A stretch of 50,417 bases of DNA from Bacilli bacterium (lineage in GTDB: Bacteria > Bacillota_I > Bacilli_A > RFN20 > CAG-826), in the NCBI GenBank assembly GCA_017447725.1, contig JAFSMX010000007.1, positions 1-50,417 of the forward strand, given 5' to 3'. Positions 34,258 through 34,422 of this stretch are shown here, piece by piece. The notes beneath the pieces were generated by a model, which was not told the origin of the DNA, ran no database searches, and saw only the letters and a list, made by a program, of their open reading frames with translations. A program made the translations under genes and the position numbers. Within the stretch, counting starts at the first letter, position 1. Each line of letters begins with the position of its first letter.

Positions 34258-34290
34258 ATAAAAATAAATAAAAACACCCATAAAGGATGT
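34258..34290 (-). terminator. Terminator between the structured RNA and the GtrA gene
   Basis: The minus strand reads ACATCC-TTTAT-GGGTGT-TTTTATTTATTTTT. Confidence 0.6.
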
Positions 34291-34294
34291 GATT

Positions 34295-34390
34295 ATTGCC
34301 AACCAGGATAGCCGTCCCTGGATCGCTTTGATATACCCATCTCCGGGGAGATGCGCCGTGGTCGCGTGCTAATTTTCCACCTTTGGCAAT
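34295..34390 (-). ncRNA. Unassigned structured RNA (sRNA or riboswitch-like leader)
   Basis: GC-rich island in AT-rich DNA, closed by the 8-bp helix ATTGCCAA/TTGGCAAT, with three internal hairpins. A promoter lies immediately upstream and a terminator immediately downstream. Confidence 0.62.
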
Positions 34391-34394
34391 TTTT

Positions 34395-34422
34395 ATTATA
34401 AAAAAATAATTAAATTTTACAA
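34395..34422 (-). promoter_or_regulatory. Promoter of the structured RNA
   Basis: TTGTAA-16 bp-TATAAT. The predicted start site coincides with the 5' strand of the closing helix. Confidence 0.62.

Follow-up and report, generated by a model that had tools for sequence, protein, structure and literature searches.

An undescribed family of cloverleaf-shaped RNAs and its putative RNase partner gene in uncultured gut and rumen Bacilli

Introduction

In the portions available of four papers on toxin-antitoxin (TA) systems of type III (PMC3401426, PMC5086642, PMC8860590, PMC13682666), the RNA of these systems is described as an array of short direct repeats situated upstream of the toxin gene, with a terminator between the two, and the toxin is reported to process this array. 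PBECR domains are presented in the available part of PMC5512222 as predicted RNases that are deployed in conflicts; those of the BECR type are found in phage polyvalent proteins and possess a conserved histidine within a helix. The subject of the present analysis is a structured RNA encoded on the minus strand of contig JAFSMX010000007.1 of a Bacilli bacterium (assembly GCA_017447725.1, positions 1 to 50,417; this stretch of 50,417 nucleotides (nt) is hereafter referred to as the window), together with the small gene to which relatives of this RNA are linked in other genomes. To our knowledge, RNA antidotes to protein toxins occur in few, related families, all of which consist of short repeats ahead of the toxin gene, and toxins of the RelE/BECR superfamily have otherwise always been described with protein antitoxins or immunity proteins. 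No RNA partner of a protein of BECR, PBECR or RelE fold was found described in the open-access literature searched, nor was the RNA itself.

The ORF-RNA cassettes described below resemble the type III systems ToxIN, CptIN and TenpIN in that a predicted endoribonuclease gene has as its companion a non-coding RNA, structured and containing a pseudoknot, in place of a protein antitoxin, and in that copies of the RNA can be arranged in tandem. They differ in that the RNA is a single four-way-junction unit of 90-140 nt which lies downstream of the open reading frame (ORF) and has its own -10 box, and in that no terminator separates the RNA from the toxin gene. The fold of the putative toxin, judged from a structural model, also appears to be different, being of RelE/BECR type; ToxN has a fold of Kid/MazF type.

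Resemblance to the PBECR/MuF-C toxins consists of weak matches to MuF_C and PBECR3, a fusion to a MuF-like capsid domain and proximity to PBECR2/PBECR3 clusters of the ESM Atlas. Compared with the domains of phage polyvalent proteins and MuF polymorphic toxins, as these are described in the available parts of PMC5512222 and PMC5576092, the genes here are stand-alone and chromosomal and fall below the Pfam cut-offs. Searches of phage collections turned up no example. Immunity genes are usually located directly downstream of the toxin domain. The RNA occupies this same position relative to its partner, the “immunity” factor here being an RNA rather than a protein. Type II toxins of the RelE/ParE superfamily (RelE, BrnT, YoeB, HigB) provide the best structural matches to the partner protein, although its sequence similarity to them is undetectable and, unlike these toxins, which have protein antitoxins encoded alongside, it has no conserved protein partner that could be seen.

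Structure and covariation of the RNA

The RNA of the window, and with it the family to which it belongs, is composed of a closing helix, three further arms and a loop-loop contact, as follows:

34295..34390, minus strand: structured RNA core; four-way junction of P1, P2, P3a/P3 and P4 in which loops 2 and 4 are joined by a pseudoknot (L2-L4)
34390-34383 with 34302-34295, minus strand: P1, AUUGCCAA/UUGGCAAU
34380-34377 with 34361-34358, minus strand: P2, GUGG/CCAC, with a loop of 15 nt
G34356-C34355 with G34326-C34325, minus strand: P3a, an added short helix
34353-34348 with 34343-34338, minus strand: P3, CAUCUC/GAGAUG
34321-34316 with 34308-34303, minus strand: P4, with the 7-nt loop ACGGCUA, abutting P1 directly
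34368..34371, minus strand: 5' strand of the pseudoknot, UAGC, in the loop of P2 (partner 34309-34312)
34309..34312, minus strand: 3' strand of the pseudoknot, GCUA, in the loop of P4 (partner 34368-34371)

A preliminary description of the window, made from its letters, had proposed P1, P2, P3 and P4 and the loop-loop pseudoknot; all of them are present on the minus strand and covariation was detected across 93 homologues. Folding of the single sequence was no better than chance (minimum free energy (MFE) z-scores of -1.27 and -0.58 for lengths of 165 and 97 nt, respectively), and the structure is regarded as settled because the comparison of homologues, and not single-sequence folding, exceeds chance. 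A covariance model (CM) designated R1 was built from ten short members, and a scan of 100 loci with R1 gave 111 matches, 93 of them distinct, which make up alignment A2. In this alignment 91.5% of paired cells hold a pair, compared with 79.5% after shuffling, and both sides change in 24 of the 29 pairs. The covariation score of 0.357 (0.164 for shuffled alignments) was reached by none of 500 shuffles and drops to 0.05-0.11 when the 3' partners are slid. Covariation was seen in P1, P3, P3a, P4 and the pseudoknot, where five of five pairs covary; the four UAGC/GCUA pairs vary as CG/GC/UA, AU/GC, GC/CG and UA/CG, respectively. The first pair of P3a is GC in 53 sequences, AU in 19 and another combination in 21. 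P2 (GUGG/CCAC) is invariant and so provides no covariation evidence for or against. The motifs GGUGGA and CCACG, as well as scattered bases of the junction, are kept in at least 97% of members.

Three size classes were distinguished. The copy in the window belongs to the first, of ~90 nt; members of the second (~135-140 nt) have an insertion in the loop of P4 and those of the third (~125-139 nt) have one in the loop of P2, these insertions in loop 2 or loop 4 being of 40-60 nt. No family of Rfam 15 was matched at the gathering score by the element, and nothing meaningful was found in the region at E<=10 or in variants from five further loci (E<=0.5), so that all three size classes are unmatched. 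The failure to recognise a known RNA class by eye in the preliminary description is in agreement with this search. The only gathering-level Rfam match in the window is a tRNA gene (19457-19529, minus strand). The cloverleaf-shaped RNA is real and is a member of an undescribed RNA family.

The order of its parts follows that of tRNA: a closing stem of 7-8 base pairs (bp), 2 nt, a 4-bp stem, 1 nt, a long arm, a variable joiner, a 5-bp stem and 0 nt. Loops 2 and 4 interact as they do in tRNA, and here the L2-L4 pairs covary. Unlike in tRNA, a variable tetraloop closes the “anticodon” arm (P3), 4-5 Watson-Crick pairs make up the contact between the loops, a CCA end is missing and some members carry the long insertions in loop 2 or loop 4. 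The element was rejected as a tRNA proper: ARAGORN reported 0 genes and the tRNA model of Rfam gave no match at E<=10.

Linked partner gene

In roughly half of the copies for which flanking sequence was at hand, a same-strand ORF of ~118-148 amino acids (aa) ends 21-42 nt before P1. Thirty-two of the 36 close upstream ORFs on the same strand fall into one blastp cluster, and an alignment of 26 sequences of this ORF family (A3) was used to search genomes. Within the genus, 13 A3 matches were present in 12 of the 37 genomes, and 13/13 are located directly upstream of an R1 match; internal stops occur in two of these ORFs (G025 and G027), that of G006 is a C-terminal fragment and another is cut by a contig edge. 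In a sample of 401 genomes of the order, the search with A3 gave 50 matches, distributed over 49 loci; the 42 genomes concerned all belong to the family of the window (42/264), and the other seven families had none (0/136). The RNA was found with R1 at 46 of the 49 ORF loci, on the same strand and within ~80 nt downstream; the 46 are made up of all 30 loci that were fetched, 12 of another 15 and four covered by the R1 scans of the genus and the order. In genome G220 a divergent ORF is followed by an RNA which is itself divergent (changed core, 24.8 bits). Genes of PBECR4, a further BECR family that these genomes also contain, served as a control: the RNA was found at 1 of 30 such loci, and PBECR4 was rejected as a second partner on this basis. 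It is this small RelE/BECR-like gene, immediately upstream and in the same orientation, that is the real partner of the RNA family.

The linkage is asymmetric. Seventeen of the 30 RNA matches in the genus have no ORF, and nine of its 21 RNA-bearing genomes, that of the window included, have no ORF match at all. Broken ORFs, with internal stops in G025, G027 and G383 and reduced to a fragment in G006, still stand beside well-scoring RNAs. The order of the cassette is ORF, RNA, terminator, with no terminator between ORF and RNA, and the flanking genes vary in family and orientation. A survey of these flanking genes found no conserved protein-coding partner beside the cassettes. Small ORFs upstream of the partner gene were considered as a hidden protein antitoxin and rejected, the only recurrent “peptides” being translated tRNA genes.

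The start codon of the ORF is often located ~6-10 nt past a -10-like box, with no obvious Shine-Dalgarno sequence (L064:~1060-1093, L091, L124), and from this spacing the mRNA of the putative nuclease may be leaderless or nearly so.

Nature of the partner protein

The partner protein is of ~125 aa and very basic, with a median isoelectric point (pI) of 9.9. Across the 26 sequences of A3, R40, H48, D60 and R90 are invariant and H54 is nearly so. An AlphaFold2 (AF2) model (predicted local distance difference test (pLDDT) 83.5, predicted template modelling score (pTM) 0.76) consists of helices followed by a four-stranded sheet, and the invariant H48 sits in helix 45-51 of this model. The top matches of an exhaustive structural aligner were RelE (Z 6.0), BrnT (Z 6.0), more RelE proteins and the tRNase domain of colicin D (Z 4.9), with further matches to YoeB, HigB, ParE, RegB and CdiA-CT toxins; matches to the RelE superfamily had Z 6.0-4.7 over 70-85 aligned residues. 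The predicted RelE-type fold was assigned because this list is consistent, not because of the Z values.

Weak Pfam matches among the 26 members were to MuF_C (8), PBECR3 (3) and DUF4258 (2), the best MuF_C match having an E-value of 1.8e-4 and 22 bits against a cut-off of 27.6, and PBECR3 reaching 21.4 bits against 30. A search of 1.84 billion representative proteins returned 111 relatives, nearly all of them stand-alone proteins of 90-160 aa. One of the 111, P0101 (519 aa), has a Phage_min_cap2 domain (MuF-like) at 24-335 and a match to A3 at 430-508 (E 1.1e-6). The nearest named clusters of the ESM Atlas are PBECR2/PBECR3 (score 0.92). On the strength of the model, the partner protein resembles the RelE/BECR-type (metal-independent RNase) fold, and the MuF-C/PBECR domains found in polyvalent toxins of phages are probably its relatives.

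Promoter and terminator of the RNA

Two further features delimit the RNA of the window:

34395..34422, minus strand: promoter of the RNA, with a -35-like TTGTAA (34422-34417), a spacer of 16 nt and the -10 box TATAAT (34400-34395); scored
34260..34290, minus strand: intrinsic terminator of the RNA, a hairpin (34290-34274) followed by a U tract, 4 nt (AAUC) from P1; scored

The -10 box of the window ends 5 nt before the 7-bp core of P1 (that is, 4 nt before the 8-bp P1). Both signals had been noted in the preliminary description, as a predicted transcription start site and a terminator beginning 4 nt after P1, and both were borne out on scoring. Of 96 copies across the family, 88 have a -10 box (one mismatch at most) whose end is 3-6 nt ahead of P1; 54 carry a perfect TATAAT, and a TGn extension is present in 54. 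In 88 of 90 copies P1 is followed, at a distance of less than 20 nt, by a hairpin resembling a terminator. This hairpin starts 0-13 nt past P1, folds independently and does not overlap P1 in MFE folds. Exceptions are found among tandem units that share one transcript (L090, L113, L138), in which the first unit has no terminator and the second no promoter, as makes sense because the units follow each other in a single transcript. Judged from these signals, each copy is predicted to be a self-contained gene and not a leader. Its product would be a small RNA (sRNA) of roughly 125 nt, independently transcribed from about the first base of P1 to its own terminator and folding into a cloverleaf-like four-way junction locked by the loop-loop pseudoknot. 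Of the earlier suggestion of a stand-alone, tRNA-like sRNA, which came close to this evidence, the independent unit and the cloverleaf connectivity stand; a relationship that tRNA models would recognise does not.

One ORF may precede two or three RNA units that differ in sequence and size class, as at L214:1911-2459 (G107:C34; three units), L203, L217, L090, L113 and L138. Some of these units are fused head to tail with a linker of 0-13 nt and others have their own promoter and terminator; such loci recall arrays made up of spare immunity genes.

Among 71 copies, the gene that follows shares the strand of the RNA in 51 and is convergent with it in the other 20, in 15 of these within 150 nt. 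Downstream genes are diverse, encoding a P-type ATPase, a nitroreductase, a hexapeptide transferase, GGDEF, Fic, AraC and L21 proteins, among others, and no functionally coherent set was found among the 65 downstream proteins scanned.

Distribution of the RNA family

Clear homologues, several to a genome, were obtained when 61 related genomes were searched in the manner of blastn. With R1, one to three copies were detected in 21 of the 37 genomes of the genus, and the genome of the window has two matches, at C35:34296-34389 (88.7 bits, E 1.7e-19) and C4:75698-75831 (56.4 bits). Of 151 genomes sampled evenly across the order, seven scored with R1, the strong ones all belonging to the window's own family. 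A pattern scan of 185,579 species genomes gave at least 122 stretches. Among the pattern matches listed, 64 are in low-GC metagenome-assembled genomes titled Bacilli, Erysipelotrichaceae or Bacillales, with sources in the rumen, in horse, goat, sheep, yak and buffalo faeces and in gut catalogues. A further 58 listed matches have a GC content of at least 42% and include two true members (L081, L141) and two that were unmatched (L087, L179); the other 54 were taken as chance matches, as they reached at most 28.4 bits with the CM compared with 37-93 bits for true members. The RNA family does not extend beyond a single family of uncultured Bacilli from gut and rumen.

Contigs from RNA libraries were also compared with the window; they have small word shares and, as assembled contigs, are no proof of transcription, RNA ends or RNA levels. 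In run X1 (poly(A) RNA-seq of a gut metagenome), a 503-nt contig ends in 98 nt that match 34296-34393 with 5 differences; the other 405 nt do not resemble the window, and the contig represents a related copy in another context. A 332-nt contig of the same run, likewise an assembled contig only, spans 33989-34323, covering the 3' end of the RNA, the terminator and the GtrA gene. Runs X3, X7 and X8 cover rpoC only.

A candidate RNA antidote to a putative RNase toxin

From the structure, the transcription signals, the gene linkage and its asymmetry, each of which was observed, we infer that the partner would have nuclease activity and be toxic, and that the RNA would bind and neutralise it, forming a protein-toxin/RNA-antidote pair with a logic like that of type III TA systems or of toxin-immunity pairs. 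We regard this as the best explanation of the data, with the chances of its being right standing about level. An antidote is suggested by the asymmetry, because the ORF is essentially never present without the RNA and the RNA is often present without the ORF or beside a broken one. The RNA would be kept in excess over the nuclease by its own strong promoter, and the transcript of the ORF would also run into the RNA, because no terminator lies between them. The RNA may act as a tRNA-shaped decoy for the nuclease. Such mimicry, which we infer by analogy from topology, is attractive because the nearest relatives among toxins include tRNA-cleaving enzymes. A more specific proposal, which is tentative, is that a toxin of RelE/BECR fold is checked by a tRNA-shaped RNA and that orphan RNAs such as that of the window are portable immunity against related nucleases; orphan RNAs would in that case protect against, for example, PBECR domains delivered by phages or by neighbouring cells.

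If the antidote explanation is correct, the cassette would represent a new class of protein-RNA toxin-antidote module, neutralisation by RNA would have arisen repeatedly in evolution and against a second toxin fold, and the RNA would be the first candidate inhibitor of the PBECR/MuF-C domains, which are predicted and little tested. Under the rival explanations, too, it is a well-supported new class of structured RNA with a defined protein partner; what is new is the RNA family, its defined partner and its narrow taxonomic range, with a function that is at present putative.

A number of observations weigh against the antidote explanation. The fold matches are moderate (Z<=6), and the aligner itself warns that Z <8 can reflect a common arrangement. 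A Foldseek search of the PDB gave nothing at E<=1e-3 (BrnT was at rank 11, probability 0.91), and the sequence search of the PDB with the profile of the ORF gave only a chance match (E 0.32). All Pfam matches are below the curated cut-offs, and PADLOC assigned no defence-system family to the ORF. The RNA was not detected at 3 of the 49 ORF loci: in G338 the ORF is broken and lies 131 nt from a contig end, in G388 it is a 30-residue fragment near a contig end, and in G311 a divergent ORF is followed not by an R1 match but by a different structured stretch closed by a P1. The layout, with a single structured unit located downstream and transcribed from its own promoter, is unlike that of every described type III system, and the asymmetry would be just as compatible with the RNA being a cofactor, guide or scaffold on which the protein depends. 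As to a link with phages, a pattern scan of viral contigs gave one stretch, which the CM did not recognise, and GenBank phages contained no tblastn match to the one ORF used as query. That the RNA size classes agree with the tree of the ORF (7 changes compared with 17.7 after shuffling, the class labels being crude) is uninformative on interaction, as adjacent genes share their history, and was not used as evidence.

The RNA and the protein may instead form a ribonucleoprotein that does not serve neutralisation, with the RNA as cofactor, scaffold, guide or activator of the nuclease, in defence or RNA processing for example, or the RNA may be an sRNA with targets in trans that merely travels along with the gene; we hold this for a possibility to be taken seriously, though not a probable one. 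The linkage at 46 of 49 loci is the same under this explanation, the invariant core (GGUGGA, CCACG) is what would be expected of a protein-binding platform, orphans that are intact and have promoters imply that the RNA may work without a protein encoded in cis, and several diversified RNAs can follow one ORF (three at L214). For an obligate cofactor, however, the nine of 21 RNA-bearing genomes of the genus without the ORF are hard to accommodate, a broken ORF beside an intact RNA fits the loss of a harmful gene better, and the closest relatives of the protein are toxin domains. That same resemblance to toxins, by fold and by distant homology, counts against the protein being an RNA-binding regulator whose binding sites, the RNA copies, stand in the leaders of a regulon and act by protein-dependent termination, including autoregulation by way of its own 3' end. 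A basic protein (pI 9.9) and RNA copies that have promoter and terminator and are often followed by a same-strand gene (51/71) would suit a regulator; with the RNA and the terminator not overlapping, binding would not obviously alter termination, many genomes have the RNA without the ORF, the downstream genes are functionally incoherent and the next gene is convergent in 20 of 71 copies, which together make it improbable. Repression of the ORF by pairing of the RNA with its mRNA, as by a type I-like antitoxin acting in trans, would agree with the linkage of the two and the RNA's own strong promoter, yet the RNA and the ORF share a strand and are not antisense, and the conserved nucleotides lie in the folded junction rather than in an open seed. 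In a crude test of 24 pairs, the predicted duplex with the 5' region of the cognate ORF (-30.5 kcal/mol) was no better than that with non-cognate ones (-32.1 kcal/mol, p=0.77), and we consider pairing of this kind very improbable.

Orphan copies and the locus of the window

Orphan copies score as high with R1 as linked ones, and, when aligned alone, are 92.9% paired, with both sides changing in 22 of 29 pairs and a score that 0 of 500 shuffles reach. The ORF family has no match anywhere in the genome of the window (94% complete), and both RNA copies in this genome are orphans, in which the RNA is retained without the nuclease gene. In the window copy the -10 box is perfect, and both fold and terminator are intact; we suggest that it may be a free-standing antidote or immunity RNA, or one that was recently stranded. 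Its surroundings are as follows:

38404-34541, minus strand: rpoC
34496..34519, minus strand: rpoC terminator, 5' of the promoter of the RNA; the sequence is identical in genome G036 up to here
33776..34231, minus strand: GtrA-family gene (Pfam PF04138, 8.9e-14), a neighbour only, outside the RNA unit

The RNA is 151 nt from the end of rpoC, which lies upstream, and is no extension of the rpoC transcript because the rpoC terminator precedes its promoter. Next after the GtrA gene are rpsL, rpsG and fusA, all on the minus strand. The gene for the GtrA-family membrane protein (window 33776-34231 and 32769-33224) interrupts the otherwise conserved rpoBC-rpsLG-fusA block between rpoC and rpsL, and the arrangement rpoC-GtrA-rpsL is common to the window and G036.

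It is this neighbour that had led the preliminary description to propose a riboswitch or attenuator for the GtrA gene, that is, a ligand-sensing RNA in the 5' leader of GtrA which controls the terminator. The RNA of the window is indeed placed between a promoter and the start of GtrA, with a terminator in between, a same-strand gene starts within 300 nt in 44 of 71 copies, and the X1 contig covering the 3' end of the RNA, the terminator and GtrA is faintly in favour. The overall plan also recalls aptamers such as those of the SAM-I and cobalamin riboswitches, which are four-way junctions with a pseudoknot or kissing loop: a closing P1, a multi-helix junction, a tertiary contact between loops, a conserved junction core and a terminator thereafter. 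Unlike riboswitch aptamers, the RNA matches no riboswitch or other family in Rfam, has no coherent regulon and no expression platform, and in many copies is not upstream of any gene. The proposal is contradicted by the downstream genes, by the convergent copies, by G036 and by the independent terminator. As to whether the RNA always precedes GtrA, just one of the 65 downstream genes scored is a GtrA gene, namely that of the window itself, the others being unrelated to it, and 20 of 71 copies are convergent with the next gene (15 within 150 nt). GtrA homologues are present in 8 of the 37 genomes of the genus, and at the seven outside the window genome the RNA is found at none (0/7). In G036, the closest relative, the GtrA protein is 93% identical and the end of rpoC and its terminator are identical, but the promoter-RNA-terminator unit is missing from the same junction, the intergenic region between rpoC and GtrA being ~97 nt compared with ~290 nt in the window; this case is decisive and therefore leaves the riboswitch proposal unsupported. 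An expression platform is wanting as well, since the terminator is apart from P1 and the alternative pairing is not conserved. That pairing, between the 5' AAAGG-UG and the terminator, does exist in the window as had been described, but it is not above chance (6 of 50 shuffles equal it), and over 90 copies of the family its mean of -6.24 kcal/mol is close to the -5.91 kcal/mol of shuffled sequences (p=0.07). A riboswitch for GtrA is in our view extremely unlikely; the terminator of the RNA may incidentally insulate GtrA from upstream transcription. For annotation, the case is a warning that a promoter-structure-terminator unit before a gene need not be a riboswitch. The window copy might also be a functionless relic of a decayed mobile cassette, as no ORF is left in the genome, the unit looks like an insertion or deletion of ~200 nt relative to G036, and cassettes occur in variable places, next to tRNA genes in 4 loci. 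Against decay stand its place among the best-scoring members (88.7 bits), its perfect -10 box and intact terminator, and the compensatory changes by which orphan copies as a group hold their pairing; a relic is accordingly hardly probable.

Further observations on individual loci

A tRNA-Asn/tRNA-Glu pair is located ~110 nt upstream of the cassette in four loci (L040:822-983, L054:796-955, L083:3747-3901 and L135:1307-1465), which could reflect synteny that these loci share or the insertion of an island at a site beside tRNA genes. At L100:2063-2566 / L232 (G489:C44), an ORF of the PBECR4 family (168 aa, Pfam 7.3e-19) replaces the usual ORF upstream of the RNA. At L061:1042-1596 (G016:C23), a divergent RNA (42.7 bits) starts 6 nt after an ORF of 150 aa with matches to MqsA-antitoxin/HTH_37. 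Other copies of the RNA adjoin genes for HepT, MazE, Fic/DOC, GmrSD, RadC and ORF6N, many copies thus being found among conflict and mobile genes. The structured stretch that follows the divergent ORF of G311 (L271:~915-1010, G311:C3) was delimited by eye as a region of ~95 nt closed by a 7-bp helix, GUGAUAA/UUAUCAC; it contains two hairpin loops, both with CCGG, which could kiss, and may represent a second RNA class belonging to a sister protein family.

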